DNA of 64,000 bases from Bacillota bacterium. Lineage in GTDB: Bacteria > Bacillota > Clostridia > Christensenellales > SZUA-584. The translations under genes were made by a program, and so were the position numbers. How positions within the stretch are numbered: the first letter of the stretch is position 1; each line of letters starts with the position of its first letter. Below the pieces are notes generated by a model. The model ran no database searches, was not told the DNA's origin, and worked only from the letters and a program-made list of their open reading frames with translations. The DNA lies in NCBI GenBank assembly GCA_023459495.1, contig JAEWTL010000118.1, forward strand, positions 45,949 to 109,948, read 5' to 3'. Shown piece by piece: positions 14,001 to 55,507 of this stretch.

Positions 14001-17000
14001 GTTCCTGCGGCGACATCATCTCGACTCCTGCAATACACGTCTCAGGTGATTCCGGAAGAATGGTGAACAGCCGACAGAAATGTCCAGCCATGCGTTGGAT
14101 CGTGGACCGCTTAAACAGCCGCTTATTGTATTCAAAATAGCACTGTACTCCTTCTTCATCTTCGTACAGTTCCAGTGTGATATCGAACTTGGCAAAGCCC
14201 GGGTCAAACGGGTATATAGCCGTATTTGTGCCGTCCAGAGATACCTGCATATCCTTTTTCGCTACAATCAGCATCGTATCAAAAAGCGGGTTGCGGCTAT
14301 AGTCCCGTGGCAGTGCGATATCAGCGATCATGCGCTCCAGCGGACAATCTTCATTGGAGAAAGCAGCTGCACAGTATTTCGCTACACTGGCAAAGAAATC
14401 TGCAAAGCTAAGGTCTCCGCGTGGGAAGCATCGCATCGGAAGCGTGTTGATGAATACGCCCGCCATATCACGAAGCTCATCCCGCGTCCGGCCGGATATC
14501 GGCGTGCCTACAATAATATCCTCTTGTCCGGTATACTTCATCAGGAAGACATTGTAGACTGCGAGTACGGCCATAAACAATGTGCCGCCATGCTGTGCTG
14601 CGAATGACTGAAGCGCTTCTTTGGCACCCTTTCCGATTCGGAACGCATGCCGAACGCCATCAAATCGCTGTTCCGCCGGACGCGGCCGGTCGGTATGCAA
14701 ATTCAGCAACGGCAGCTCGCCCGAAAGCACGTTCTTCCAGTAATCCCGCTGTATGTTCATACTGTCGGAATGCAGAAACTCTTGCTGCCATAGCGCATAA
14801 TCCTTATATTCCAACGGCCTTTGCGCAAGCTTTTCGCCCTTGTATAGCGCAGCAAGATCGCTAAACAGTATCTTCTGGGAGCGCTGATCGCTGATGATAT
14901 GATGCACATCAATAAACAATACGTGCCGCCGTGGCGCAGTCTTGATCAGAGCGGCATGCATCAGCGGTGCGGTCCCTAAATCGAAGGGCCGGATAAGCCC
15001 TTTCAATGTACTTCTCAGCGCTTTTCGTTCACATTCCAAGGCTTCCAGAACAAGCTTTGCTTTTTTATGAATCTGCTGCCTTAAATCCGCACCGCGCAGT
15101 ACAAAGGATGTACGCAGCGTTTCATAATAATCCACCAGCCTCTGGAAGGCCGACTGAAGCCTGTAAATGTCTATATCGCCTGTAATTTCAAACGCAAGAG
15201 GTATGTTGTAAGCGACAGACCCCTTATCAGCCTGGGCTAAAATCCACATGCGCTGCTGAGCCGAAGACACCGGATAGTCATGCTGTACAGGCGCACAGAG
15301 TATAGGGCTATATGAGGATTCTTCCGCAGCGTCAATCACAGCCGCCATGTCGGCCAGCCGAGGGGCATTGTACACTTCCTCGTGGCGAAATGCGACATGG
15401 AACTGCTGCTCGATCTGCGTCATTACATTCAGTATGCTCAGGGAGTCTCCGCCCACATCAAAGAAACTGTCGTTACGGCTGATTCGTTCCAGTCCCAGCT
15501 CGGCGCCCCATATTTCCGCCAACAACCGTTCTGTAGCGGTTTCCGGCGGCTGATAGTCCTCTTTCTGATCTTCCAGATACGCCATAGGATCAGGGAGCTT
15601 ATTCCGGTCCACCTTGCCGCTGTTATTGTAAGGCAGACTGTCCACAGTTATAAATATGGACGGAATCATGTACGCGGGCAAGTCCCGGCTCAGCTGCGCC
15701 TTAATATCCACGCTCTTGGGCGGATTACCGCAAAGATACGCGCAGAGGAAGCGGCTTCCCGCTGCGTCGTTTGTATAGGCAGTCACTGCGCTGGAAGTAA
15801 CACCCGGGATGCTGAGCAGCCGATTTTCCACCTCGCCTAATTCAATTCTGAAGCCGCGTATCTTCACCTGTTTATCGATGCGGCCCAAAAATTCAATCTC
15901 ACCAAGCGGATACCAGCGCGTGAGATCCCCTGTGCGGTAAAGTTTCATGCCCGGCTCAAACGGGTTGTCAATAAACCGCGTGCTATTCAGTTCCGGCTTG
16001 TTAAGGTAACCACGAGCTACACCTGGTCCTCCGATATACAGCTCGCCTGGTACTCCAATAGGCACTGGGTTGTGGTGCGGGTCGAGGATATACGCCTTAA
16101 CATCCGGCATCGGCCGTCCAATGTTTGGGACGGCGGCATGCGAAACTTCAGCCAAGGTACAGCATATAGTGATCTCCGTGGGACCATACATATTCGTAAT
16201 ACGTGCCTGTGTACACTGCTGAATCTGTGCTAAAAGCTTTTCAGTCAGCACGTCTCCGCCTAAGCCGATTTCGCGAAAATTCGCAAGGCATTCCGGTCTT
16301 TGACGGTCCGACAAAAGTAATTCCATCCGTCCCGGCGTCACCACCATCATGTTAACATTGGCGGACTGTATCAGCCGGACCATGTTGCGGGGCACGGTCA
16401 CTTCGTGTTCCTGTGCCATTACCAAAGTCAGGCCGCTCGTCAGCGCGAGCGTATACTCCATGACACTGATGTCAAACGAAATCGATGAAGCGCAAAGAAG
16501 CCTGCCGCCTGGCGAAAGGTCCCAAAGTTCCTGCATCGAATACACAAAGTGCACGATCGAACGGTGTTCAATCTGCACGCCTTTGGGCTGTCCGGTTGAG
16601 CCGGAGGTGTATATCACATATGCGAGGCTGTCCGGTGTACAGTCGGATTTGACCTTGCCTGCGGAAGGGATTCTCAAATCCGTCCGAACAACATGCAAAC
16701 CGAGGTCATTAGGGCACTTGTATTCGTACTCTGGCGATACAATTACAATTTTTGCGCCGCTGTCGGCCAGCATGTATGCGATGCGCTCTGCCGGAATATC
16801 CGTATCAATGGGCTGAAATGCGCCGCCTGCTTTGAGGATTGCCGCCACTGCGATGCAGTAATGAATATTACGACTCACCAAAAGGCCCACGATGCTGTCC
16901 CTGCGGACGCCGAGGCTGTAAAGATGGGCAGCCAGGGCGTCGGAGCGTTCGTCCAAATCGCGATAGGTCATCGTACTGCCTGCACAGACTACCGCTGGTG

Positions 17001-18426
17001 CGTCGGGGTCTTTATCAAAGCCGTGCTGTAGAAGCTCCGTCAGCGTTTCGCCCTGTGGATAGCTGCGTGCGGTGTCGTTGAAGCGATAGAGGATTCTTTT
17101 GCGCTCTTCCTCGCCCAATAAGTCCAGCATATAGAGCGGCTTGTCGGGATGGTTGATCATATCGCGGACGATATTGGCTAAATGGATATGGAAATATTCG
17201 ATCTCCTTATCGTGGAAAAGTGGCGTAAGATGGTCGTAGTCGAGGATGAAGCGCCCTTCGTCTTCACGGTCGTTCACATGGATGCTGAGCGCGCCGGCCT
17301 GGCTGCCCGAAAAATGCCAGCGGCCCTCATAATTAAAGTGCTCAGAATTCTTCTGGAACTTCCCGTATTGGTAAGAAAGCGTAACGTCATAGAGCTCATC
17401 AAGATTCTTGTATTTTTGATGCAACTCATGCATGAGTATATCGAAAGGATATTTCTGATGCTTCAGCGCGGAAAACCACTCGTTGGATACGATTTGGGAA
17501 AACTCCGTAAAGGAAAGCTCATCGGACAACGCAATGCGCACAGGGACCATACTCACGAACATGCCAAACATGGACTTTTCATCCAGCGTCGTACGGTTTG
17601 CGACTGGCGCGCCGATGATGATATCGTTTTTCCCGGTGACGCGGTTGATATAAATCGCCAAAGCGGACAGGAACATCGCATATACGGAAATACCCGCCTT
17701 CCGGCAGTATCCCCGCATTTTCCCGGAAAACGATTCTGGGAGAATAAACACCTTGCGCTGTGCGTCAACGCACATATCGGTGGTCTTCTTCGGCTTCAAT
17801 ATGGTGGGCTCGGAAAGCTGCTCGAACCGATTCGTCCAGTAATCCCGGTCATATGCATAGCGTTTAGACTGAAGATATTGCTGCTCTGCCGAGATATAAT
17901 CGATGTATGACGGATGAGAAGCAGCCGCCGGTTCATGGCCCTCCAGCAGCTGCCGGTAGTTATCCATTACTTGATTAGAAAACTCTACAATGGAGTTGGC
18001 ATCGGATATAATATGGTGGAACTTGGCGTACAGCCAGCATTCCCCTGAGCCAACATTTAATAAGGCAAAATAGTATAGTCGGCTGTCGATAAGCGGCATT
18101 GGGGTCTTGGTCTGCAAGCTGTCCCATTCGAACAGTTTTTCAAGGCTGAGGCCCGAAAAATCCAGCGTCTCCGCGTGGTATGGTTCATATGGAGCGACAT
18201 ACTGATAGGGTGCGCCTCTGTCAGTGCTGACACGCAGCCGAATTGATTCGTTCTCCTGTAAAAATATGTTCAAGGCCCGGTCCAGCAGCGCATAATCGAT
18301 ATGGCCTTTAATTTTAAGTGTTCCGGCATTGTTCCACATCCCGGTTCCGGGATGCAGTTTCTCGGTATACCATATGCGCTGCTGCGGATGGGTGAGCTCG
18401 TATTTAACCGGATGATCCATAACCAT
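11059..18426 (-). CDS. Bimodular nonribosomal peptide synthetase, C-A-T-C-A-T-R (terminal thioester reductase)
   Basis: Two C domains (HHIISDANS, HHIISDQRS). Two A domains (YTSGSTGQPKG, YTSGSTGIPKG, GELYIGG / GEAYISG). Two T domains (FFDVGGDSLS, FFALGGDSLG). C-terminal NAD(P)-binding reductase (ILITGATGYLGAHIL). Confidence 0.95.
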   Translation of the reverse strand: MVMDHPVKYELTHPQQRIWYTEKLHPGTGMWNNAGTLKIKGHIDYALLDRALNIFLQENESIRLRVSTDRGAPYQYVAPYEPYHAETLDFSGLSLEKLFEWDSLQTKTPMPLIDSRLYYFALLNVGSGECWLYAKFHHIISDANSIVEFSNQVMDNYRQLLEGHEPAAASHPSYIDYISAEQQYLQSKRYAYDRDYWTNRFEQLSEPTILKPKKTTDMCVDAQRKVFILPESFSGKMRGYCRKAGISVYAMFLSALAIYINRVTGKNDIIIGAPVANRTTLDEKSMFGMFVSMVPVRIALSDELSFTEFSQIVSNEWFSALKHQKYPFDILMHELHQKYKNLDELYDVTLSYQYGKFQKNSEHFNYEGRWHFSGSQAGALSIHVNDREDEGRFILDYDHLTPLFHDKEIEYFHIHLANIVRDMINHPDKPLYMLDLLGEEERKRILYRFNDTARSYPQGETLTELLQHGFDKDPDAPAVVCAGSTMTYRDLDERSDALAAHLYSLGVRRDSIVGLLVSRNIHYCIAVAAILKAGGAFQPIDTDIPAERIAYMLADSGAKIVIVSPEYEYKCPNDLGLHVVRTDLRIPSAGKVKSDCTPDSLAYVIYTSGSTGQPKGVQIEHRSIVHFVYSMQELWDLSPGGRLLCASSISFDISVMEYTLALTSGLTLVMAQEHEVTVPRNMVRLIQSANVNMMVVTPGRMELLLSDRQRPECLANFREIGLGGDVLTEKLLAQIQQCTQARITNMYGPTEITICCTLAEVSHAAVPNIGRPMPDVKAYILDPHHNPVPIGVPGELYIGGPGVARGYLNKPELNSTRFIDNPFEPGMKLYRTGDLTRWYPLGEIEFLGRIDKQVKIRGFRIELGEVENRLLSIPGVTSSAVTAYTNDAAGSRFLCAYLCGNPPKSVDIKAQLSRDLPAYMIPSIFITVDSLPYNNSGKVDRNKLPDPMAYLEDQKEDYQPPETATERLLAEIWGAELGLERISRNDSFFDVGGDSLSILNVMTQIEQQFHVAFRHEEVYNAPRLADMAAVIDAAEESSYSPILCAPVQHDYPVSSAQQRMWILAQADKGSVAYNIPLAFEITGDIDIYRLQSAFQRLVDYYETLRTSFVLRGADLRQQIHKKAKLVLEALECERKALRSTLKGLIRPFDLGTAPLMHAALIKTAPRRHVLFIDVHHIISDQRSQKILFSDLAALYKGEKLAQRPLEYKDYALWQQEFLHSDSMNIQRDYWKNVLSGELPLLNLHTDRPRPAEQRFDGVRHAFRIGKGAKEALQSFAAQHGGTLFMAVLAVYNVFLMKYTGQEDIIVGTPISGRTRDELRDMAGVFINTLPMRCFPRGDLSFADFFASVAKYCAAAFSNEDCPLERMIADIALPRDYSRNPLFDTMLIVAKKDMQVSLDGTNTAIYPFDPGFAKFDITLELYEDEEGVQCYFEYNKRLFKRSTIQRMAGHFCRLFTILPESPETCIAGVEMMSPQELWQVTQGFNQTDMPLDFNVTIQSLLESLATASRDKAALIIEGKRMTFWELNNRANQIAHRLREMGVQRNTIVALYVRRSFDMVAGLMGVLKAGGGYLPLDPTYPNDRVSFMLEDSDTKIILTDSPVNIPFNGDVLNLKDVPDNGDAENLDAIDRPEDAAYMIYTSGSTGIPKGGVLPRRALLNLYEGTKTTICYDSSQTSVSVTTVSFDIFVIDALLPLLFGCTVVLCTEEELRQPHMLAELIETEQVKFIQTTPTRMRIMMSDPSFRAAAKRNIQKIVLGGEEFPLSLLKLLKKYTDARIISGYGPTETTVYCTFKDLSHTSHITIGRPIINTRMYILDKYRRPVPMGVLGEAYISGACVATGYINRDELNREKFTPDPYWPGKTMYQSGDICAFMENGEMEIKGRVDHQVKIRGLRIELGEIEAAIREVKGVSEAVVKDWDEGVNKFLCAYYATKQGITPDMLRKYLSKKLPSYMVPSFFIGMSELPLTLNGKVNRKLLTRPDNEAQPQDNTPHEKLTKSEKIMARIWSRILKISAVQPGDSFFALGGDSLGVIKVQAALLQYGWTIRTQDFYEYQTLRGVCSRLNTAKTVRKTENEKVYIKEYRHITPPDMKNILITGATGYLGAHILAELIEKGESKICCLVRGKSHKECTARLREVLVFYFGSSAQKMMANVQIVQGDITQHHLGIAVHQYNELMEIDTVFHCAAVTDHIGYSTVFQQINVEGTRNIVEFVKDAKAVLLHVSTVSVSGTQYRDDPMRRGEFHENYFDIGQNYEDNEYVKSKFLSEEIVLKAIEQGLNARIFRVGVLTVSMNGRFQYHPEKNAFANRLLTICDIGCIPIEMLDTRIEMTPVDICANAILLLASVETKLPVFHVFNTNIMTLAEVIALIEMNGYRIEILSGREFMQRVILMSKKGSLSRLTGIIEDISGDQANENIIITAKKTHQILERLGFEWPVIDEGYIASFLNTIKEKGITGV

Positions 18427-37850: not shown

Positions 37851-38903
37851 CTAAGCGCCACTTTTATCTTTGATTTTGGAAAGTACATATTTATAGTCGC
37901 GTTGCATATCGCGCCACCTATCACCGTTTGCGCGTTTGATTGCCCGAAACGCGCTGAGTGTCTTTGGTGCACTGTCGCCAAGATATGCGCGATACCTTTC
38001 CCACTGTCGGCGGTCGCGGCGCTGGTCGCGCTTATCGGCCTGCATGGCATTATAGGCATCGACTTCCTGCTGGGCACGGGTATCGCCTCGTAGAGGCTTC
38101 TTTGCATCCTCCAGATACTGCGCGCGCTCTTCATCGGTCCATAATGCCTCGACGGTGAGCACAACTACATGCCTGCAATTGGGGTGGATGACCTTAAACC
38201 CCTTATCGAAACCCGGCACGTCCGAGAGGGCAGGGAAGCGCTTGTCTTTCCCTGAGATCGAAAATATGCGACCCTGGATCGGCGCGCATACCTCACAGGT
38301 AGGGTAGTGCTCCGAGAACTTAACCAGATCATAGCCCAGCTGCTCGCCGGTCGACGTTGTTGCGCTATTGGTGGCTTCACGCGTGGTGGTGCGCGCCACC
38401 AGATCCGCGTATCCATCTAAACGAAACTGCCGTCCGGATCCGCCGGTCACCGTCGTCATGCCTTCGGCCTGCAGGCGCTCAAGAATCCGCCGCCTGGCTT
38501 CACGTATCGTCTGGCCGGTGCTGAGCTTCTCCGCTATTGCATCAATGCCAATCTGACGGATGTTGTCCGCCAAATGCCTGCCGAAATAATGGTTGGCCTC
38601 GACAAGCTGGTCCACCGCGTTTTCTGCTATGATCTGCATTGCGCTGCGGTTCAAGCCTCCGAACGGCCCGGCCTGTATATCCGCCAGCGCTTTGGCTTCT
38701 GCAGCGGTATACGATTTCTTGACCAACTCCGCCAGGTCCTTAGCCGCAGCCGCATCCAGCTTAGCAACTTCCTTTTCGATCTCCGCGACGAGCCGTTTGT
38801 AATATCGCTTCCAGCTCGCGCCCTCCGACATCTCGGCGATTTTCTTCAGCAGCCGTTTATATGCCGCCTGATAATACTTGATCAACCGTTCCTGGGCGGT
38901 CAT
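37851..38903 (-). CDS. Head morphogenesis protein (Mu F / SPP1 gp7 family)
   Basis: Follows the portal gene. Has conserved ...CEVCAP...HPNCRH... motifs. Confidence 0.8.
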   Translation of the reverse strand: MTAQERLIKYYQAAYKRLLKKIAEMSEGASWKRYYKRLVAEIEKEVAKLDAAAAKDLAELVKKSYTAAEAKALADIQAGPFGGLNRSAMQIIAENAVDQLVEANHYFGRHLADNIRQIGIDAIAEKLSTGQTIREARRRILERLQAEGMTTVTGGSGRQFRLDGYADLVARTTTREATNSATTSTGEQLGYDLVKFSEHYPTCEVCAPIQGRIFSISGKDKRFPALSDVPGFDKGFKVIHPNCRHVVVLTVEALWTDEERAQYLEDAKKPLRGDTRAQQEVDAYNAMQADKRDQRRDRRQWERYRAYLGDSAPKTLSAFRAIKRANGDRWRDMQRDYKYVLSKIKDKSGA

Positions 38904-40285
38904 TCTTCATCGCCTGCGCCTTCATCATCTCCGGCTATTCTGGGCACGGTAACCGTAGGCGACATAGCGGCCTCTTCGTCATGAATCTGATTCTGCTCTT
39001 TTTTAGTATCGTCATCGCTGAGACCGCGCTTTTTGATTGCACTATATTGGCTCATGACCGCTTTTCCGCCTGTCGCAGATGACAGCATCTCCAGCTGTTC
39101 TTTTTCGTCGACCGGAAGACCGTCGCTCCAATAGAGCTTCAGTGTGTTTTTGTTGATTTTAATGTTATTGAGCTTTGCAAGGTTGTAAATTACCCGCTTT
39201 ACTGTTGGGCTATTGAGACTTACCAGCCGCTGCGCCTTAATGCGCGGCGATACCATGCGCAGCTTTAGGGCAGTACCTGATGAATCACTGGCATCCCCGC
39301 CTGCGTCTGCGAAAGCCTGTCCCATCTCGGATAAAATATAGAGTTGATCGAGCAGTATCTCGATCTCTTTCCAGTTGCTTTCAAGGTTTCCATCCCAAAC
39401 GACGTATCCGAAATCAGGGTCGTCTTTACTTTCGCGTTGAAAGTAGTTGCCCAGTGGAACAAAATATTGCTTCGTACGTTCATCCCACTCCAGCGCCGAC
39501 TTTGGCCCGCTCATACTCGGCTCGCTGTGCTTATCGAGGATCGTATCTGCGCAGTGTAAACGCCACATAAGCTCGGCAATGATGCTGTTTACGATATTAT
39601 AATCATCCAGCCCGAAGACGCTGCCGCTATGCGTCAGGTTCGTCAGCCGCTGCACCGCCGAAATTTCCAGCCCGGTCGATTTAGTGACCGGCGCGCTAAT
39701 TAAGCCTCCGATCGTGCTGCTATCTGCATTGAACTTATGCTTCCGGATCTCAATCTTGCCCGACGAGTGGATCTCCGCGTACAGCGCTGACGGCTTCCCG
39801 TCGGCGTCGGTATCGGTCGGATATACGATAACGTCCTGCAAAATACGCTTCAGATTCGACGGATCCACGATCGGTATCCAGTGCTGTGGGTTGGCCTCTG
39901 TGATTTCCTTGCCGACGAACTTAATCAGCCCGTTTCCGTACCGGCTGACGTCGATGATATTTTCATAGAGCATGCTAAAAAAATTCAGATCGTTCAGCAG
40001 CTCCATCAACTGATCGGTTTCGCCTTCCGTTTCGATTGTCGGAGACTCCCCGCACACAAAATCAGCTGTCTTTTTAGAGAGCAACTGGTGATAGTTGAGG
40101 ATCGTTTTCACGCTGCTGTTTTTCTTCTTGTACTGATCAGCCAATTTAACAAATCGGGCTTTCCATACCTCGTCATGTTCCGTAAGAAAAAGCCGTTCAT
40201 GTTCCTGGTACCGTTTGATCCGGGCTGCCTCGCTCGGGGGAGGCCATGGCTTACCTTCAGCCAGCCAGTTTAAATTCGTCAGCAT
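38900..40285 (-). CDS. Portal protein
   Basis: 461 aa between the large terminase and the F-like protein. Acidic C-terminus. Confidence 0.8.
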   Translation of the reverse strand: MLTNLNWLAEGKPWPPPSEAARIKRYQEHERLFLTEHDEVWKARFVKLADQYKKKNSSVKTILNYHQLLSKKTADFVCGESPTIETEGETDQLMELLNDLNFFSMLYENIIDVSRYGNGLIKFVGKEITEANPQHWIPIVDPSNLKRILQDVIVYPTDTDADGKPSALYAEIHSSGKIEIRKHKFNADSSTIGGLISAPVTKSTGLEISAVQRLTNLTHSGSVFGLDDYNIVNSIIAELMWRLHCADTILDKHSEPSMSGPKSALEWDERTKQYFVPLGNYFQRESKDDPDFGYVVWDGNLESNWKEIEILLDQLYILSEMGQAFADAGGDASDSSGTALKLRMVSPRIKAQRLVSLNSPTVKRVIYNLAKLNNIKINKNTLKLYWSDGLPVDEKEQLEMLSSATGGKAVMSQYSAIKKRGLSDDDTKKEQNQIHDEEAAMSPTVTVPRIAGDDEGAGDEE

Positions 40286-42091: not shown

Positions 42092-42204
42092 CCTGCCGAA
42101 CGCCCAAACACACCAGCGCGGACTTTTGAATACGCTTTAAAATCTCTTGAACGTTTTAAAACACCTTTAAATTAAAAAGGCCTCCAAAAAAGGCAGGGTC
42201 GGAC

Positions 42205-42294
42205 ATCCGGGCGGCAATTTTGCCCGGATTTGTGGCCGATATTACCCCGTTTCGGGCCCGCCGGGGGACGAATCAACCCCGGCGGACGAAACGG
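42205..42294 (-). promoter_or_regulatory. Two very stable hairpins in the 231-nt gap between the NusG-like and large terminase genes
   Basis: Hairpin 1 (42247-42294) has 8-bp and 9-bp stems: CCGUUUCG/CGAAACGG enclosing CCGCCGGGG/CCCCGGCGG. Hairpin 2 (42205-42229) is ATCCGGGC/GCCCGGAT. Neither has a clear U-tract. Confidence 0.5.
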
Positions 42295-44167: not shown

Positions 44168-44491
44168 TTAAACTGCCTCTGAGGTGTCATCGAACAAGCT
44201 GATCTGGCCTACTACGGGCGGTATGGAAGGGCCAACGATCTGGCGCACCCACTGCTCCGATATCCCGTACCTAATTGCAAGCTCGCGATGGTTGTATCCA
44301 GTGTACTCCTCTTTGATCAAGCTGTCACGCACTTTTATTGTCAGCTTATCCACAGTGGGGATATACATCGTGCAGCCCGCAAACATTTCAACCAGCTTGC
44401 GATAAGCTTCTATCCCGATTGCTTCGGCCACCCGGCGCGGCTCGTCGGCTAGATGCTCCAGCTGCAGCTGCTCAAGTAGATCTATTGCCAT
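44168..44491 (-). CDS. mor: Mor-family transcriptional activator
   Basis: ...FAGCTMYIPTVDKLTIKVRDSLIKEEYTGYNHRELAIRYGISEQWVRQIV matches the Mor/C family including the C-terminal HTH. Confidence 0.8.
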   Translation of the reverse strand: MAIDLLEQLQLEHLADEPRRVAEAIGIEAYRKLVEMFAGCTMYIPTVDKLTIKVRDSLIKEEYTGYNHRELAIRYGISEQWVRQIVGPSIPPVVGQISLFDDTSEAV

Positions 44492-44981
44492 CGCTACGCT
44501 CCTTTCTGCGCTCTGCCGACGCCACGTACCGCTTCAGCTTTTCGATTAGCTGCCCGCCAGTATACGGTGTAAGCCATCGAAACGGTTCTTCGACGGTGGC
44601 GTCGACAAGCAGCTCTTTTTTGATCACACCGACCATGCGTTCTCCGGCGGTCGCTTTGGACTTCTTATCGTCCAGCTCGATTAGTCGGTAGATGTACCGC
44701 CATGCCAGCCGCTGCTGCGCTTTGTTCATCCGCCCGGCAGGCGTATTGTCGGTGGCTGCCGGAGGCAATGGCGCGCGGCGGGACTTGCCCTGAAGGAGGG
44801 GGAGCAGCTCCCGCTCCACATTGTAAAAATCGCCATCACTCAGATCCTTAACCGAACCTTTGCCGGTAACCCGCATTACAATCGCATGCAGATTATCGTC
44901 CTTGTTCCCGGACTCAAGGACGCCTGCAGCCGCGCCCAGCGCGTAGATCCGCCGTACCTGTTCCTTCGTAATTGCACCCAT
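44472..44981 (-). CDS. GemA / Mu gp16-like protein (DUF1018)
   Basis: ITKEQVRRIYALGAAAG...SVKDLSDGDFYNVEREL is typical of gp16. Confidence 0.7.
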   Translation of the reverse strand: MGAITKEQVRRIYALGAAAGVLESGNKDDNLHAIVMRVTGKGSVKDLSDGDFYNVERELLPLLQGKSRRAPLPPAATDNTPAGRMNKAQQRLAWRYIYRLIELDDKKSKATAGERMVGVIKKELLVDATVEEPFRWLTPYTGGQLIEKLKRYVASAERRKERSDGNRST

Positions 44982-44996
44982 GTCAACCTCCTTATC

Positions 44997-45356
44997 TTAC
45001 CGTCCCGATGCTGCCCGCTTCTTACGCTTTTTCTTCTTTGGCTGGCTTTCCCGCTCCAGCCGCTTCCGGAACGCGTCCATTCTTTTATCTACCGCAGTTT
45101 TGGTTTTATCTTCTATCCTCTTCCAAAGCTCATCATTTGATATTTTCCCATCCTGACAATCCCGCAGCCATAGGACATTTTCCATAATGTCTGCTAACCG
45201 ACGGGCAAGAGGCTTGTCGCAAAACTGCTGATTCTCGGCAAGGCCCTGCACATGGAACATGCATTCATGCAGCAGCTGTGTTGACACCCTGAATGAATCG
45301 GCTTTCACACGGTCCATTATGTCCTGCGCCCACTCGCGCTCCTGCTTCGGCGTCAT
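44997..45356 (-). CDS. Hypothetical phage protein with a basic C-terminus
   Basis: 119-aa ORF with a KKKKRKKR tail. Confidence 0.5.
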   Translation of the reverse strand: MTPKQEREWAQDIMDRVKADSFRVSTQLLHECMFHVQGLAENQQFCDKPLARRLADIMENVLWLRDCQDGKISNDELWKRIEDKTKTAVDKRMDAFRKRLERESQPKKKKRKKRAASGR

Positions 45357-45871
45357 TTCGCGCCCTCCTGCAGCTGCTCCTTGTCGACCTCGTACCAGAA
45401 GACGTCCTTGATCTCTAGCTTAGCGCCGACAGCTGAAACCTGTGTTTCCGAGTACTTGCCGAGCTTCTTTTTATCAATTTTGTCAGGCTGCGGCACCAGA
45501 CAATCTTTCATGCCCAGCTTTTTTAGCTTCTGAACAATATCCTCGATCTCAGTCTTTCCTTTGGGCAAGATGACCTTGGTCGACTTCCGGAACCCGAGCT
45601 TACCAAAAGTCATAGCCTTGGTCTTTGCCTTGCCAAGATCGTCGGTGTGAGCATTTGCAAACAGCTGCAGCTGTTTTTTCATAGACTCAATGCGCTTTAG
45701 CCATGGCTCTGCCGCTATCTCGGCAGCGGCCTTGGCGGCGGCGATCTCTTCTTGCATCTTCGCTTCGATCCCGGCGATGACACGTTCATACTCACCGATA
45801 TCCGCCAGCGTAAGGTTGGCGTCATCCCAAGTCTTTAATATGCTGACCTCTTCCATCCGTACTCTTGCCAT
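45353..45871 (-). CDS. gam: Gam-like host-nuclease inhibitor
   Basis: Coiled-coil N-terminus (IAGIEAKMQEEIAAAKAAAE...) and a C-terminal beta region, as in the Mu Gam family. Also fits synteny with gemA/mor. Confidence 0.75.
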   Translation of the reverse strand: MARVRMEEVSILKTWDDANLTLADIGEYERVIAGIEAKMQEEIAAAKAAAEIAAEPWLKRIESMKKQLQLFANAHTDDLGKAKTKAMTFGKLGFRKSTKVILPKGKTEIEDIVQKLKKLGMKDCLVPQPDKIDKKKLGKYSETQVSAVGAKLEIKDVFWYEVDKEQLQEGAK

Positions 45872-49595: not shown

Positions 49596-49610
49596 GTTTG
49601 CCCCCTTTAT

Positions 49611-49624
49611 CGAACATATGTTCT
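49611..49624. promoter_or_regulatory. Cheo-box-like LexA operator upstream of the methyltransferase gene
   Basis: CGAACATATGTTCT fits CGAAC-N4-GTTC. TTGACA (49653-49648, minus strand) lies upstream, with a weak -10 (GAACAT) 17 nt after it that abuts the box. Confidence 0.45.
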
Positions 49625-49649
49625 ATGTTCTCTCGGAGGCAAGGCTTTG

Positions 49650-50039
49650 TCAATGCTTTTCGCGCATGCGGGGGATGGTCAGATCATCCCGGACGCGGGG
49701 CGTATAGTGGCGGTTCTGGTGGTATTCATCTACCTTGCGGACTTGCCCCAGCAGCGCGCTTAGTTCATTCAGCAACTTTGGATGCGACCTCATGAACGCG
49801 TCGATCGGCCCCGTGCACTCCTCGATATCCTTGTGATAGCGGCGAGAGATGAGTGTTTTCTGCAGCTCGCGGCTGACTCGGGTCCGCGACTTCGCGTCCT
49901 TTGCTGAAAGCTCAAGCTCATGCTGTAGGTCAGAAATCTCTTTTTCCCGGTCACTGACAACTCCGCCGTGGAAGCCGTAATCACTGACCGACCGCTTCAA
50001 AAAGTTGATCGCATTCTCAAGTTCCTGCGCGTAGTTCAT
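49650..50039 (-). CDS. Hypothetical phage protein
   Basis: 129-aa helical ORF with a GGAGG RBS. Confidence 0.55.
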   Translation of the reverse strand: MNYAQELENAINFLKRSVSDYGFHGGVVSDREKEISDLQHELELSAKDAKSRTRVSRELQKTLISRRYHKDIEECTGPIDAFMRSHPKLLNELSALLGQVRKVDEYHQNRHYTPRVRDDLTIPRMREKH

Positions 50040-50119
50040 ATTGCCTCCAGTACCAGTTGGATGTATAATTTTATCAATCTATCCGCTAGGTATAGCATAC
50101 TGATTGTGCGAACTTTAGC

Positions 50120-50193
50120 GGGCCTTACGCTCCATGGCTATGCGGGAGTTTACCCCCCAAACTCCCGCTGCCATGGTCTCTCCCCACAGGCCC
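50120..50193 (-). ncRNA. Unclassified 74-nt extended stem-loop RNA element
   Basis: Nested stems GGGCC/GGCCC, CCAUGGC/GCCAUGG and GCGGGAGUUU/AAACUCCCGC. Asymmetric internal loops and a G6U apical loop. Intergenic, directly 3' of twister-like copy A. Confidence 0.4.
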
Positions 50194-50209
50194 TGCTATC
50201 GGGCTTCAT

Positions 50210-50290
50210 CCTCACTCTGCATTTTCACGGGCTGGTGACCGTCGGCTGTTAACCGGCTGCATTAAGGCAGGAGCGGTAGCGCTCCTTGGC
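50210..50290 (-). ncRNA. Twister-like self-cleaving ribozyme motif, copy A (with P3 insertion), plus 5' hairpin
   Basis: Minus strand: AGGAGCG-CUAC-CGCUCCU hairpin, then CCU-U|AA-UGCA-GCC-(GGUUAACAGCC)-G-ACGG-UCACCAGC-CCGU-G-AAAA-UGCA-GAGUGAGG. Predicted cleavage is between 50264 and 50263. Confidence 0.55.
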
Positions 50291-50301
50291 AGTTAATCAT
50301 T

Positions 50302-50826
50302 CTAAGCGGTGCCATCCTCGCTCGGCTTGGCCTCCGACGCAAAACCACTTAAAAACCAGTGCTTATCATCCTTGTTGATGTTATAAGGGATAGCCTCATC
50401 ATTCTTTTCATCGTAGCCGCCGTAATTTGTCCAGTTGTCACCATTCACAGACGTCTGATTCCACCCAATGGCTATGCAGTCTTCGTCCGCAAGTGCGCTT
50501 TCAATCACATTTGCTTGTTCTTTCAATGAAGTCTCACCCTCGAAAGCCCTGAAAGCATCAATAACCTGCTGAAAGTTTTCGCGCTTTATAAGGGCATAAT
50601 CATAGGTGGTTTGCAATGCGATCTGTTCGTACTCCGGCATCCTTTCAAATGCATCGTTCAGTTGATCGAATCCGGCCTGACCACTAAACATTGGAAAGGT
50701 TCCACCATAATATTTGTCGTATAGGAAGTTCCATATGGCGATTCCTCCACGCCACGAATTTTTAATCTCCGCAAGAAAGTATGCATCTCCTTTTTTGTCA
50801 AACCCAAACATCTCCGTATAGCTCAT
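50302..50826 (-). CDS. Hypothetical 174-aa protein bracketed by the two twister-like motifs
   Basis: GGAGGG RBS. Sequence MSYTEMFGFDKKGDAYFLAEIKNSWRGG.... I recognise no family. Confidence 0.65.
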   Translation of the reverse strand: MSYTEMFGFDKKGDAYFLAEIKNSWRGGIAIWNFLYDKYYGGTFPMFSGQAGFDQLNDAFERMPEYEQIALQTTYDYALIKRENFQQVIDAFRAFEGETSLKEQANVIESALADEDCIAIGWNQTSVNGDNWTNYGGYDEKNDEAIPYNINKDDKHWFLSGFASEAKPSEDGTA

Positions 50827-50849
50827 CCACGATTACCCTCCTTCAAATT

Positions 50850-50922
50850 CCTCACTCTGCATTACACGCGGGCTTGTGACCGCCGTCGGCTGCATTACGG
50901 GGTAGGAGCTGTCACGCTCCTA
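50850..50922 (-). ncRNA. Twister-like self-cleaving ribozyme motif, copy B, plus 5' hairpin
   Basis: Minus strand: GUAGGAGC-GUGACA-GCUCCUAC hairpin (includes the UAG stop), then CCCG-U|AA-UGCA-GCC-GAC-G-GCGG-UCACAAGC-CCGC-GUGUAA-UGCA-GAGUGAGG. It aligns element by element with the O. sativa twister core UAA-CACU-GCC-AAU-G-CCGG-UCCCAAGC-CCGG-AUAAA-AGUG-GAGGG. Confidence 0.65.
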
Positions 50923-51132
50923 CGCGATGTCTTTTGGAGGATCCTTCAGGCTCACAAGAGGCTTGTCTACGATCTTCAGGCATTTTGTTGCAAACCCTCC
51001 GGACTTTCCCTCAAGCAGAACGCATTCCGTTCCGCATACGTCATATGGTTCCGACCGTGTTTTCCACACCTTGTTCGGATACATCCGCGCTTCCGCACAG
51101 TTGACCATCTTCACTTCCGTTCCGACCTTCAT
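50920..51132 (-). CDS. Hypothetical small phage protein
   Basis: 70 aa with a GAGGAGG RBS. Confidence 0.55.
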   Translation of the reverse strand: MKVGTEVKMVNCAEARMYPNKVWKTRSEPYDVCGTECVLLEGKSGGFATKCLKIVDKPLVSLKDPPKDIA

Positions 51133-51340
51133 TTGGCACCTCCTCTAAAATCTCGTCCATCGGCTCGCTTCCGGTCGTCTCCAGCAGTATTGCCGGAGGT
51201 GCGGCCAGCAGCTGATATCCCTTCGTAATGTGGTGCAGCCGCTTTCCGATGTCGACGACCACCACTCCGACCTGCTCTTCCGGGGCAAATCGCTGCAGAT
51301 ATTCAATCAGCTCTCCGCATGTCATAATCCTTTCCGCCAT
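51041..51340 (-). CDS. Hypothetical small phage protein
   Basis: 99-aa ORF. Its last ~30 codons overlap the next gene, so the 3' end is uncertain. Confidence 0.4.
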   Translation of the reverse strand: MAERIMTCGELIEYLQRFAPEEQVGVVVVDIGKRLHHITKGYQLLAAPPAILLETTGSEPMDEILEEVPNEGRNGSEDGQLCGSADVSEQGVENTVGTI

Positions 51341-51960: not shown

Positions 51961-52240
51961 CTGCGAAAGCCTCCTCCCGGATAAATACGTGGACTGTCTG
52001 CAAACCGTGATGTATGCCGCAGGTGCCTAAAAAGCGATATCCCGTCAGGTCCGGCGCTTCATATTCGGAGCCGAGAATGATCACGGTGTATGGCTCGGTT
52101 GCCGCCCGGTCCGAGTCGATGAGGGCGAACAACACGATGCCTTCGTGCTGCTCCATTACGCTTAGTACCTTGGCATTCTCCGGCAGCTTCACGGTCTGGG
52201 CTGCGGTAATCTGCATTGCGTACTTTTTGACCGTCATCAT
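51947..52240 (-). CDS. Hypothetical phage protein
   Basis: 97-aa ORF overlapping the MuB-like stop by 4 nt. Confidence 0.5.
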   Translation of the reverse strand: MMTVKKYAMQITAAQTVKLPENAKVLSVMEQHEGIVLFALIDSDRAATEPYTVIILGSEYEAPDLTGYRFLGTCGIHHGLQTVHVFIREEAFADGTT

Positions 52241-53178
52241 ACCGCCACCGCCAGCTTCATCTCCATATGCTTCGCCATGCCCACAAGGCCATCATAGCTG
52301 GTGTTCTCATTGTCCATCGCATTAACATAGAGGTTCATGGCACCGCGCAGAGCCTGGGCGCTGCGCGCGATCCCCAGCAGCAGATCGATTGCCTTTTCAT
52401 CTTCCAACGCCGGAAACAGCAGCTGGATGTCCTCGCGCTTGATCTGCATATAGGTGTAGACCTTGCGCTGCCGGGTGCGGTTATTGATCTGCGCGAATTC
52501 AGCGCGCTTCTTACCGCCTGCATTGTTTACCGTGTCGCTGTTTCCGATCAGCGCGATCCCCAGCGTTTGGCCGAGCTCGTCAAAGTAGTCCGACAGCGCG
52601 CGCAGCGCTTCCAGCGTCTTGATGGGCAGATGTTGGGCCTCGTCGACGATGATCACCATTCCATCCCGGAGCTTGGCGGCAAGCCCGAGCCACATCTCGT
52701 CGTTGGTACGTTCTGTGACATTGAGCTTCGCGCAAAGCACTTTCAAAAGAGCTTTAACGGTCGTTATGCAGGGGTTTAATGCCACGTATACGGCATCGTT
52801 CGGGTGGTCGCGGAAGAACTTCTTGGCGGCCATAGTCTTTCCAATCCCCGCATCACCGCATGCGATGGCCAGCCCGCCCTTCAGCTGGCAGTTTCGAATC
52901 ACCTCATAGACCTTGGTGGATATCGATGTACCCACGTACCCGCTGCTGGTAAGCTCGTACCCAGGCGATGCGGCGGCAGCTTCCTTGGTTTCGAAATAGC
53001 TGATCAGCTTTGCGAATTTCGCATCCTCATCCCCTTTGTATACGCCGCGGCGCAATGGGGACATGGTCGACGATGGTATTCCTACGATTGCGCAGGCCTT
53101 GTTTTGGCTCCCAACGGTCTTTTCCAGCTCCGCGAACTTCGTCAGGGCCCATTGCTTTTGCATGCTTGTTAACTCCAT
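52237..53178 (-). CDS. MuB-like AAA+ transposition ATPase
   Basis: N-terminal HTH-like region, Walker A GDAGIGKT and Walker B MVIIVDEAQ. Start trimmed to ATG 53178 (GGAGGAGG RBS). Confidence 0.8.
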   Translation of the reverse strand: MELTSMQKQWALTKFAELEKTVGSQNKACAIVGIPSSTMSPLRRGVYKGDEDAKFAKLISYFETKEAAAASPGYELTSSGYVGTSISTKVYEVIRNCQLKGGLAIACGDAGIGKTMAAKKFFRDHPNDAVYVALNPCITTVKALLKVLCAKLNVTERTNDEMWLGLAAKLRDGMVIIVDEAQHLPIKTLEALRALSDYFDELGQTLGIALIGNSDTVNNAGGKKRAEFAQINNRTRQRKVYTYMQIKREDIQLLFPALEDEKAIDLLLGIARSAQALRGAMNLYVNAMDNENTSYDGLVGMAKHMEMKLAVAV

Positions 53179-53194
53179 ATGCAACCTCCTCCAT

Positions 53195-55162
53195 TTATTC
53201 CGAGCGGCGCTTCGCCGCATTACGGTTCATTTTGCTCATGTCGATCAGCACGCCCGTGGTGCCTTGACCGACAGCCTCCTGCATGGGCATCTCTTCGCCG
53301 GATGTTACCGGTACGATGACCTTGGGCTGCTGGATCAGCATACCTTCCTTGCCAGCGTGCGCCCGGCGCACAGCGAGGTCCAGCATGTCGATGCTGCGGG
53401 CGGCGGGTACCGCACCCTTCAGCGCGGCAAGCTCCGACTTCACAGCCTTGTGCACGCGGCGTACGGTCTCCTGTGCCACCTTGACGGCTTCCGGATTGTC
53501 ATTAAACAGAACCATCGTGTCTCGCGCCATGGGTACCGTTCCGATGTAGCGGTCCGTCTCTGCGTCGTAGATACGCACGCTGTATAGGTTCGCGGGGTTG
53601 TAGCGGACGTATATCTCGGTACCCTGCAGCCGCCATGTATCTTCGTCCCAGTAATAGAGCTTTTCGTCGCAGATCGTGATATGCACACCGTTTTGACCAA
53701 CCTTCTGCTTACGAGTGCTGCGCATCAGCATCAGGTTGAGATCATCCGCAGAGGCTTTGCGCTGCGCCTGAATATACTCATTCCAGATGTCGATCCGGCG
53801 CTTACCATGGTCCTTTTCTACCGCGCCGCCATAGCTCCCGACGTTAAATTGGCCGTCGATGAAGTCCGAGATCATAACGCGCAGCTCGCCGTCCAGCGGT
53901 ACCAGTCCTTGCTTGAGCGTATATTTCAGGCTCTCCGGACGCTCCATCACGTTTCCGCCGCAGAATGTCTCAAACAGCCTCGATATCGTTCCTTTAAAGG
54001 TGTTAAAAGTCCGTTCAATAGGCTTCGCCTTGGCATTACGCACCAGGGCGTTGCGCAACTCGATCCCCAGCCGGGTAAATATCGGCGGCGGATCGGATAC
54101 AAGGTCTTGGCTCTTCCGGCTCCTGTGGCCGCGCCCGGCAAGGTCGTGGGTGAGAAACTCGGAGCCGTTATCGAAGTAGACAACTTTCGGGATTCCAAAG
54201 CGTAGGATTGCGTGCCGTAATGCCAGAACGGTGGACTGGCTGCATGGATTGTCTGTCAAGTTCCATCCGACCATGACTCCGCTTCGGGCGTCGATGAACG
54301 CTGTCAGGCTCATGCGGTGCTCCACCTTGCTGCCATCATCCCGATAGGAGAAGATATCCAGCGTATGGTTGTCCGCCACCCAGTAATCGTTTGGAAAAAG
54401 CTCATCGTACATCCGGACGATATATGGCGCGCACCGGTCGGAAAATGCCTTGTTGCCCTGTCGACCCAATGTGACCACGGCAGCGGCGATCTTCTCCGCC
54501 TGGCGGCGGAAGGTACGCTCACCCGGAAGGTCTGGCACCAGTTCCGGCGAGAACTCGGAGATCCAGTATTGTGTCAGCTGATAGCATTGGCTAATCGAAA
54601 GCTGCCGTTCGTCCAGATATGCGGTCAAAAACCAATCCCAGGCTTCTTTCGGAATCCCGCATTGGCCACGGTTCCATCCGCCCCGGTGATCGATGAGGCC
54701 TTCGATGTCACCGGCTTTATATGCCGCCCATTTGCGGTAGAGGATATCTTCGCTTAGGGCGATGTCCTTATAGTGCAGTTTCATCATGCTGACAAACAAC
54801 GGATCCGCGTCAGTCTTTCGGTCATATTTAGCCCGGCAAGCCTGCCATTGTTCCAACACGTTTGTCCAAAAAGAGATCTGTTCACGTTCCGCTGCGCTGT
54901 ATTCATCGAAGCTCCGCGCCGGGCGCGCTGCCTTCGGCGCTTTTGGCGCTACAGGCAGCAGCGACTCGCCCTTTAGGTTGGAGTAGTACTTGCGCTGCAG
55001 CTCCTGCGGAAGCGAACTGGCCGGGACCATATACTGCTTGCGGTTGTTAGCCGGGTTTGAATGTTCCTGAGCATAAATAGCCCCGGTTTTGATCTGCTCC
55101 CGGATATATCGCTCGCTACAGTTCTTCAATTCGGCTACTTGTTTTACTGTCAATAGATCCAT
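53195..55162 (-). CDS. MuA-like DDE transposase
   Basis: N-terminal HTH (LTVKQVAELKNCSERYIREQI), an rve-like catalytic core (WVADNHTLD...YFDNGSEF) and a large Mu-transposase-type C-terminal domain. Confidence 0.9.
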   Translation of the reverse strand: MDLLTVKQVAELKNCSERYIREQIKTGAIYAQEHSNPANNRKQYMVPASSLPQELQRKYYSNLKGESLLPVAPKAPKAARPARSFDEYSAAEREQISFWTNVLEQWQACRAKYDRKTDADPLFVSMMKLHYKDIALSEDILYRKWAAYKAGDIEGLIDHRGGWNRGQCGIPKEAWDWFLTAYLDERQLSISQCYQLTQYWISEFSPELVPDLPGERTFRRQAEKIAAAVVTLGRQGNKAFSDRCAPYIVRMYDELFPNDYWVADNHTLDIFSYRDDGSKVEHRMSLTAFIDARSGVMVGWNLTDNPCSQSTVLALRHAILRFGIPKVVYFDNGSEFLTHDLAGRGHRSRKSQDLVSDPPPIFTRLGIELRNALVRNAKAKPIERTFNTFKGTISRLFETFCGGNVMERPESLKYTLKQGLVPLDGELRVMISDFIDGQFNVGSYGGAVEKDHGKRRIDIWNEYIQAQRKASADDLNLMLMRSTRKQKVGQNGVHITICDEKLYYWDEDTWRLQGTEIYVRYNPANLYSVRIYDAETDRYIGTVPMARDTMVLFNDNPEAVKVAQETVRRVHKAVKSELAALKGAVPAARSIDMLDLAVRRAHAGKEGMLIQQPKVIVPVTSGEEMPMQEAVGQGTTGVLIDMSKMNRNAAKRRSE

Positions 55163-55168
55163 GTCATA

Positions 55169-55229
55169 CCTGCCTCATCAGTACCGGGAGGTTATCCCCG
55201 GCAGACCGCCCGCAGGCGGTTTCGGCTTA
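55169..55229 (-). ncRNA. Type-II hammerhead ribozyme motif, copy 1
   Basis: Minus strand: UAA-GCC-GAAA-CCGCC-UGCG-GGCGG-UC|UGCCGGGG-AUAACC-UCCCGGUA-CUGAUGA-GGCAGG. CUGAUGA, GAAA, the A15.1-U16.1 pair and the GUC cleavage triplet are all present. Predicted cleavage is between 55204 and 55203. In cis, stem II is only GGC/GCC, possibly plus UAU/AUA. Confidence 0.7.
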
Positions 55230-55412
55230 TTCTTCGATTCTCCCATCCACCGTATAGCGGTGCGGGTCAGATACAGTCAAATGCTCGCCGCATACTAAAC
55301 AATCAAAGTCCCGTGTCTTAAATCCTTGATTGTGAGCTGGGAATATGACCTCTACGCGATTTTTAGCTCCACATTTCGGACATGTTGTTTCGATCTTGCC
55401 TGTCATATCCAT
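55227..55412 (-). CDS. Small zinc-ribbon protein (61 aa) bracketed by the two hammerhead motifs
   Basis: CPKCG...CLVCG, with an AGGAGGG RBS. Confidence 0.6.
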   Translation of the reverse strand: MDMTGKIETTCPKCGAKNRVEVIFPAHNQGFKTRDFDCLVCGEHLTVSDPHRYTVDGRIEE

Positions 55413-55436
55413 CGAAAACCCTCCTAAACATAATTT

Positions 55437-55507
55437 GAAACCTGCCTCATCAGTGCCGGTAGGTCGTCCCCGGCAGACCGCCCGCGGGCGGTTTCGGCTA
55501 CTGTTTC
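55437..55507 (-). ncRNA. Type-II hammerhead ribozyme motif, copy 2
   Basis: Minus strand: GAAAC-AGUA-GCC-GAAA-CCGCC-CGCG-GGCGG-UC|UGCCGG-GGACGACCUA-CCGGCA-CUGAUGA-GGC-AG-GUUUC. Stem II is GGC/GCC plus GUUUC/GAAAC. Predicted cleavage is between 55476 and 55475. Confidence 0.8.

Follow-up and report, generated by a model that had tools for sequence, protein, structure and literature searches.

A twister-P1 homologue with P0 and P3 stems and a rare L4 substitution in the early operon of a Mu-like prophage

The stretch of DNA analysed here (64,000 nucleotides, referred to as the window) represents a bacterial chromosome with a Mu-like transposable prophage, the early region of which carries two twister-like elements. 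Copy A lies between two same-sense genes of the early operon. Judged from its sequence and predicted fold, it is truly homologous to the self-cleaving ribozymes of the twister class; it belongs to type P1 and carries both optional stems, P0 and P3. The minus strand of 50268..50209 matches the Rfam family twister-P1 (RF03160) from end to end (model positions 1-68 of 68), with a score of 56.9 bits and an E-value of 3.9e-10 (cmscan in E-value mode, 64 kb, 4227 families). In the same run copy B was also matched over model positions 1-68 of 68, with 42.1 bits and an E-value of 6.8e-6. The sequence-only reading had described copy A as a second twister-like copy, which is borne out by this full-length match and by over 250 relatives that share its core, found in phage contigs and gut Clostridia genomes. 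We regard it as probable that copy A acts as an active double-pseudoknot twister which would process neighbouring cistrons of the early operon.

Neither copy reaches the gathering cutoff of RF03160, 67.2 bits, and both are therefore missed by default annotation; at Rfam gathering thresholds no twister was found in the window, and only two type II hammerheads were reported. Scores of 63.2 bits (copy A) and 68.1 bits (copy B) were obtained with R1, a covariance model of the phage subfamily. Searching the whole window with this phage-specific model and the filters off revealed no further twister copies.

Structure and family membership of copy A

The segments of copy A are listed in Table 1 together with other features of the window. 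The helix layout proposed for it earlier could be traced base by base, comprising P0, P1, P2, P3, P4 and both pseudoknots.

Table 1. Coordinates of the twister copies, their segments and other features of the window
Feature	Coordinates	Strand	Basis or remarks
Twister copy A, type P1 with P3 stem	50209..50268	minus	RF03160 and R1
Copy A, P0 auxiliary hairpin: AGGAGCG (50286-50280), loop CUAC, CGCUCCU (50275-50269)	50269..50286	minus	sequence, MFE fold
Copy A, linker G	50268	minus	sequence; P0 thus one nt from P1
Copy A, P1: CCU with AGG	50267-50265, 50212-50210	minus	only 3 bp
Copy A, predicted scissile bond, U-1 (50264) / A1 (50263)	50263..50264	minus	Rfam alignment, Osa-1-4 U6/A7 homology
Copy A, P2: UGCA with UGCA	50261-50258, 50221-50218	minus	sequence, MFE fold
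Copy A, GCC after P2 5' strand	50257-50255	minus	sequence
Copy A, P3 mini-hairpin GGUU/AAC/AGCC (G-C, G-C, U.G, U-A)	50244..50254	minus	sequence, MFE fold
Copy A, single G between P3 and P4	50243	minus	sequence
Copy A, P4: ACGG (50242-50239) with CCGU (50230-50227)	50227..50242	minus	sequence, MFE fold
Copy A, loop L4 UCACCAGC	50238-50231	minus	sequence
Copy A, variant C, place of Osa-1-4 A28	50234	minus	position mapping
Copy A, GAAAA after P4 3' strand, before P2 3' strand		minus	sequence
Copy A, G45 A46	50217-50216	minus	sequence
Copy A, T1 3' strand GUG	50215-50213	minus	sequence
Copy A, T1 pseudoknot: CAC with GUG	50237-50235, 50215-50213	minus	sequence
Copy A, T2 pseudoknot	G50257-C50231, C50256-G50232	minus	sequence
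Twister copy B (type P1 without P3; L4 with canonical AAGC)	50849..50901	minus	RF03160, R1
Copy B, predicted cleavage	50897/50896	minus	sequence alignment
Copy B, P0 hairpin GUAGGAGC / GUGACA / GCUCCUAC	50902..50923	minus	sequence, MFE fold
129-aa ORF, downstream of copy A	49650..50039	minus	phrog_2717
174-aa ORF, bracketed by the two twisters	50302..50826	minus	phrog_19610
Type II hammerheads	55164-55227, 55436-55499	minus	RF02276, above gathering cutoff
MuA-type transposase	53195-55162		
MuB-like ATPase	52237-53220		
Gam	45353-45871		
GemA	44472-44981		
Portal	38900-40285		
Minor capsid protein 2	37851-38903		Pfam Phage_min_cap2
Host NRPS gene	11059-18426	minus	

In copy A the nested helices P1, P2 and P4 follow one another in family order with the N/AA internal loop, the pseudoknots T1 and T2 are both present, and the core and catalytic bases U-1/A1/A2, G45, A46, A29 and G30 all occupy their aligned places. 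In the twister mechanism A1 serves as the general acid and G45 as the general base, and A2, A46, A29 and G30 are core bases (PMC5113685, PMC10249389, PMC11662667). The predicted place of cleavage, between 50264 and 50263, had been named by the sequence-only reading and agrees with both the Rfam alignment and homology to Osa-1-4. The auxiliary hairpin P0, which begins 15 nt past the stop codon (50304-50302) of the 174-aa ORF, lies directly 5' of P1, and P3 is placed on the 5' side of L2 between T2 and P4; both the P0/L0 auxiliary stem and the P3 position have already been described (PMC11662667). One deviation, which does not disqualify the element, is the C at 50234 in place of the first A of the L4 motif AAGC.

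The MFE fold of 50290-50207 consists of exactly P0, P1, P2, P3 and P4. The MFE z-scores of the isolated RNAs of 64-84 nt are weak (-0.5 to -1.7), as is to be expected of a fold resting on two pseudoknots that are beyond the folding program, and they were used as evidence neither way. Such z-scores, together with a score under the gathering threshold, could be taken to favour a chance resemblance to the twister consensus. This explanation can be practically dismissed for copy A in view of an E-value of 3.9e-10 over the whole window, the presence of two copies in one operon with hundreds of same-core relatives, and the occurrence of the element at the orthologous position in two relatives, L040 and L305.

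Copy B with its P0 (50923..50849) is built to the same plan without P3, having GCGG/CCGC as P4 and UCACAAGC as L4. The P0 of copy B includes the stop codon UAG (50922-50920) of an upstream 70-aa ORF, and the RBS GAAGGAGGG begins 5 nt beyond the 3' end of the copy B ribozyme. The predicted cleavage sites of the two copies (50264 and 50897) are 633 nt apart, in accordance with the '600 nt' given earlier. The change in P4 is compensatory as claimed, with an outer pair A-U in copy A and G-C in copy B, and the L4 sequences CAGC and AAGC were likewise found as described. Two other statements hold in part. The 'about 45 nt' said to be nearly identical is roughly right, since the copies share four identical blocks amounting to 39 nt in sum, and P0 plus ribozyme are 73% identical over 81 nt. 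The 11-nt insertion relative to copy B does lie at the published P3 position, but it is not a clean one, being an 8-nt indel plus substitutions when compared with the L040 orthologue.

Relatives and structural covariation

Relatives were collected in IMG/VR with the pattern UAAUGCAGCC-N(1-30)-GGUCAC-N-AGCCCG, which matched at least 120 contigs. In the one-genome-per-species GTDB set the same pattern matched 82 stretches, mostly from gut Clostridia (Lachnospiraceae, Oscillospiraceae, Ruminococcus, Ruthenibacterium, Enterocloster and Hungatella) and some from Collinsella. A BLAST search of 49600-51200 against 50,697 GenBank phages (distant mode) returned nothing.

The pattern matches yielded 101 distinct copies (alignment A1), in which double-sided changes occur in every pair of P1, every pair of P3 and the outer pair of P4 (GC, 36; AU, 34; CG, 19). 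The P3 columns covary in those relatives that possess this stem, which measures 4-6 bp and is found at the same place in about a third of the relatives. The covariation score of P1, P3 and P4 was 0.211, compared to 0.058 for shuffles (reached by 0 of 500) and 0.039-0.051 for slid partners. P2, T1 and T2 were fixed by the pattern itself, and the model R1 was therefore built without pseudoknots; its search of 100 loci gave 147 hits, including 29 distinct twisters outside the pattern. Among 123 distinct hits the middle pair of T1 was A-U in 100, C-G in 10, G-C in six and U-A in two, and double changes were found in the other two T1 pairs as well. T2 was G-C in 121 of these hits and A-U in two, and the P2 changes comprised A-U to G-C and C-G to U-A. 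Thus, structural covariation is apparent at the sequence level in all six helices, P1, P2, P3, P4, T1 and T2. A clean compensatory change in T2 is seen in the upstream twister of L189 (5316-5372, minus), where A13-U31 (GCAACC ... AAGUCC) replaces G-C.

The similarity of copies A and B could in principle reflect a repeated protein-binding site in DNA or RNA, or a recombination boundary, with ribozyme structure being irrelevant. Such a reading might draw on the closest relative, L040, in which the same bracket encloses a non-homologous 192-aa ORF (140-718) between conserved twisters and conserved downstream genes, so that the 55-80 nt could be DNA-level joints. A linear binding site, however, predicts none of the compensatory double changes seen in six helices including two pseudoknots, and the covariation therefore largely rules out a mere protein-binding repeat. 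The sequence-only reading had named conservation without structural covariation as the finding that would count against a ribozyme, and compensatory changes in all nested helices and both pseudoknots were observed instead. Furthermore, the twister copies are co-oriented with the genes throughout the 100 loci, and copy A matches in full length an RNA family with solved structures. We consider the binding-site or boundary explanation very unlikely, a recombination role being possible only as a by-product.

The low Rfam scores are shared by related phages. All seven type P1 twisters scored with Rfam in Mu-like phages (the window, L040 and L189) have 40-57 bits, 10-27 below the cutoff, those of L040 and L189 reaching 40-53 bits on RF03160, which suggests that the cutoff excludes the whole phage subfamily. 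Default pipelines leave these copies, and probably much of the subfamily (more than 200 copies seen), unannotated.

A hairpin of -8 kcal/mol or lower is present within 36 nt upstream in 83% of 105 unique copies versus 27% of control windows, and it ends 0-5 nt ahead of the cleaved U. Of some 2,000 natural twisters surveyed elsewhere, approximately 10% had P0, and its role was called unclear (PMC11662667). P0 is thus much commoner in the phage subfamily than in published natural twisters.

Some of the relatives are circularly permuted, with AAUGCAGAGUGA followed by a closed P1 hairpin and then by UAAUGCAGCC...GGUCACAAGCCCG, an arrangement resembling type P5. They are found in L011 (741-787), L038 (710-760) and L048 (3291-4609), the last of which has four copies about 400 nt apart.

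The C28 substitution and predicted activity

The C at 50234 occupies the place of A28 of Osa-1-4, the trans Watson-Crick partner of A46 in T1. In Osa-1-4, L4 consists of U24 C25 C26 C27 A28 A29 G30 C31, T1 is formed by C25-G49, C26-G48, C27-G47 and A28-A46, and T2 by G13-C31 and C14-G30 (PMC5113685, PMC10249389). The base at position 28 was left free in the pattern scans. Among the IMG/VR matches listed, 134 of 135 viral instances have A and the only C is that of copy A; in the GTDB scan all 96 genome twisters have A and none C, and the same holds for the 29 extra twisters found by R1 in the 100 loci. One 'C' hit in the genome set, L261, was a chance non-twister and was left out. In sum, at least 259 relatives carry A at position 28, and under 2% carry C. 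A scan of IMG/VR targeted at C revealed one more case, in L189, and a similar scan of 241 million metagenome records two others, L300 and L301. These three copies are otherwise intact, with 65-70 bits on R1, and vary among themselves in P3 and P4.

The four natural C28 twisters (window, 50209-50268; L189, 4839-4894, minus; L300, 676-731; L301, 2472-2535) all have CCU/AGG as P1, which is found in only 24 of 101 family members; the chance of this for the other three is about 0.01. The shared P1 could be due to common descent or to coincidence (n=4). L189 and the window each have a pair of twisters, and in each pair C28 is found in the downstream copy.

An assembly error is not the source of the substitution: the locus recurs unchanged in assemblies ERZ28600768 and SRR13358454, and a contig from ENA and one from Logan match the window at 100% identity across 1600 and 1280 nt, C28 included. 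One caveat is that both contigs may share one sample and so may not be independent. The orthologues of copy A in L040 and L305 have P0 and the canonical A28 and lack P3, indicating that both C28 and P3 are recent and derived in the lineage of the window. No orthologues other than these two were found by searches with the downstream 23-mer, with the 129-aa neighbour in IMG/VR and among 5.8 billion proteins. The outer pair of P4 is A-U in the window, G-C in L040 and G.U in L305, indicating that pairing was kept in this lineage as the sequence drifted.

C28 most likely represents a recent lineage-specific substitution in a ribozyme that would still be at least partly active. In a complete single-mutant scan of Osa-1-4 only G13, G30, A46 and G48 were intolerant to all substitutions (PMC5113685). 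Natural twisters with an A-to-C change at the trans Watson-Crick A.A pair cleaved like controls, with no significant loss (PMC11662667); this paper does not name the side of the pair, but since A46 is intolerant, the tolerated cases presumably lie on the A28 side. By analogy, this suggests that A-to-C at A28 is tolerated by twister.

The same substitution may be read in another way: copy A would descend from a twister but have lost all or most of its catalytic activity. C28 would weaken T1 beside the active site, and a short P1, a weak P3 and the P0 hairpin would add to the loss; the RNA would then be a young relic, or merely a spacer or 5'/3' structure that folds. Few twister positions are as conserved as A28, and the rarity of C (0 of 96 genome twisters, 1 of 135 listed viral ones, two in the targeted scan of the metagenome records) fits mild counter-selection; the recency implied by A in the L040 and L305 orthologues fits a young relic. 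P1 has just 3 bp, even if this helix is reported to be dispensable, and P3 is marginal, with four pairs including U.G and a triloop. An imperfect longer pseudoknot (PK2 in PMC11662667, which corresponds to T1) and P0 each reduce mean cleavage; in vitro, twisters with P0 had a mean cleavage of 0.40 and those with both P0 and P3 of 0.67, versus 0.85 (PMC11662667). Against impairment stand the absence of significant loss in that survey for A-to-C at the A.A pair, the position of A28 outside the four fully intolerant ones, the otherwise perfectly intact state of four independent C28 twisters (63-70 bits) and the pairing of P4 maintained in the lineage of copy A. Impairment thus appears possible but rather unlikely, and on the sequence evidence we lean towards meaningful self-cleavage by copy A. 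Having C28 in one lineage and the canonical base in an orthologue, copy A offers a natural experiment on a near-invariant T1 position.

Prophage context, putative role and comparison with known systems

All genes in the twister region are located on the minus strand. The Phage_min_cap2 protein of the prophage is taken to be the Mu F-type head protein. The host NRPS encoded beside the prophage has 2455 aa with the domain order C-A-T-C-A-T-R, ending in a reductase domain.

The 174-aa protein has no relatives in 185,579 species genomes in a protein-based search, and a single relative in IMG/VR (44%, L217), which occurs without a twister. The 129-aa ORF has orthologues in L040 (87% aa identity) and L305 (60%), each also preceded by a twister. 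Copy A is separated from the next start codon by 170 nt, while most relatives directly precede the RBS. About 60 nt following copy A (block 50132-50208, minus; L040 781-855) are approximately 95% identical to L040 versus 80-84% for flanking genes. The block contains the hairpins GCCC-GAUAGCA-GGGC (50204-50190) and CCAUGGC...GCCAUGG (50176-50132), with a compensatory change from A-U to G-C in L040, and the roughly 60 nt gave no match in Rfam. The window has an extra 90 nt or so after the conserved block that are absent from L040. A small ORF from the AUG right after copy A (MKPDSRACGERPWQREFGG, then stop) was considered and rejected, its length not being conserved in L040 and no usable SD spacing being present; the conservation of this region is better explained by the RNA hairpins.

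The same layout recurs across relatives: after the stop codon come P0, the cleavage site, the ribozyme and then the next gene. A same-strand ORF of at least 60 codons lies ahead of the cut in 144 of 170 unique relatives, at a median distance of 24.5 nt (interquartile range 18-37), the corresponding distances from the end of the upstream ORF in the window being 23 and 38 nt. An RBS with a start codon follows within 80 nt downstream in 70 of 105 relatives. Two to four copies are present in 39 of 100 loci, always co-oriented and with a spacing of 299-3297 nt. Neither a sigma-70-like promoter nor an intrinsic terminator was found on the minus strand of 49900-51200, the latter result indicating that P0 is not a terminator.

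By analogy with other bacterial ribozymes, intercistronic mRNA processing is the likely role of copy A. For bacterial twisters and hammerheads the processing of polycistronic transcripts into pieces differing in stability or translatability has been proposed but never demonstrated; it would probably benefit phages, and the biological role of bacterial and phage twisters has been called elusive (PMC6765202). In the prophage, the RNA of copy A within a long early transcript would fold into the double-pseudoknot twister and cut itself between U50264 and A50263. The upstream mRNA piece would carry a 2',3'-cyclic phosphate and be closed off by the P0 hairpin, which would serve as a protected 3' end. 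The downstream piece would have a protected start, its 5'-OH being enclosed by the compactly folded ribozyme. Neighbouring cistrons could thereby be uncoupled in stability and translation; the protection of ends would follow from established RNA-decay biology.

In the window and in L040 the conserved twisters enclose unrelated genes, which hints that the ribozyme sequences may double as recombination joints for gene cassettes. A bolder and distinctly improbable extension of processing is a natural cistron insulator ('stop codon, P0, cut site, twister, RBS') of transposable phages of gut Clostridia, combined with DNA cassette joints and with C28 copies as slow or conditional cutters. If true, it would give every small early gene a protected 3' hairpin end and a 5'-OH ribozyme-capped start, the conserved 55-80 nt would be joints for swapping cassettes between phages, and rare C28 copies such as copy A would leave two cistrons partly coupled.

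A RAGATH-28 motif (42197-42282, minus; 39.5 bits versus a cutoff of 45.3) immediately follows a NusG-like gene of the phage (42323-42844; Pfam NusG, 2e-16) and precedes a 598-aa ORF, the first of the structural operon; the motif is also present in L040 (7506-7590, plus) and L189 (629-716, minus). It may be the element on which the NusG paralogue of the phage acts in late-operon antitermination. With two twisters, two hammerheads and RAGATH-28 at fixed positions in one transcription direction, the prophage provides a compact system for the idea of intercistronic processing.

The two type II hammerheads, 5 kb upstream of the twisters, bracket a single 61-aa zinc-ribbon ORF (55227-55412), and each starts at the stop codon of its upstream ORF. 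Of the pair, the downstream hammerhead stops 2 nt short of the Mu transposase ATG (55162), whose only SD-like sequence, GAGG, is located inside the ribozyme. Like the twisters, they belong to a self-cleaving class, are situated at gene boundaries on the coding strand and form a pair around one small gene. Unlike copy A, they represent an unrelated fold and family, score above the cutoff and have no P0-type hairpin.

Synthetic ribozyme insulators such as RiboJ use a self-cleaving RNA and a hairpin to separate a cistron from the upstream RNA context. In contrast to copy A, RiboJ-type insulators are engineered and hammerhead-based and carry the hairpin downstream of the cut; in copy A the hairpin is upstream, and an insulating function would be inferred.

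The twister type P1 class (RF03160, clan CL00120) is attributed to Roth et al. 2014, as cited in PMC11662667. RF03160 and copy A have in common the order P1, U/AA, P2, GCC, (P3), P4 with L4 UCxCAAGC, AAA, P2', GAGxG, P1', as well as two pseudoknots, optional P0 and P3, and a bacterial context near phage genes and hammerheads. They differ in the middle pair of T1, which is C-G in the consensus and A-U in copy A (compensated), in the near-invariant first A of AAGC, replaced by C, in a P1 of 3 bp and in the score below the cutoff. Osa-1-4 of Oryza sativa, known from a crystal structure (4OJI) and mutational scans (PMC5113685, PMC9901934), maps one to one on the core of copy A (U6/A7, G13-C31, C14-G30, C25-G49, C27-G47, A29, G45 and A46). 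However, it has no P0 or P3, a P1 of 5 bp and a eukaryotic rather than phage origin, and its C26-G48 and A28 correspond to A-U and C in copy A. The class, the permutation type, the auxiliary stems, the phage context and the hammerhead neighbourhood have all been published already, and the twister pair changes nothing known about the class. What is not routine is the sub-threshold scores, the rare A28 substitution with canonical orthologues, the high frequency of P0 and twisters that flank non-homologous genes.
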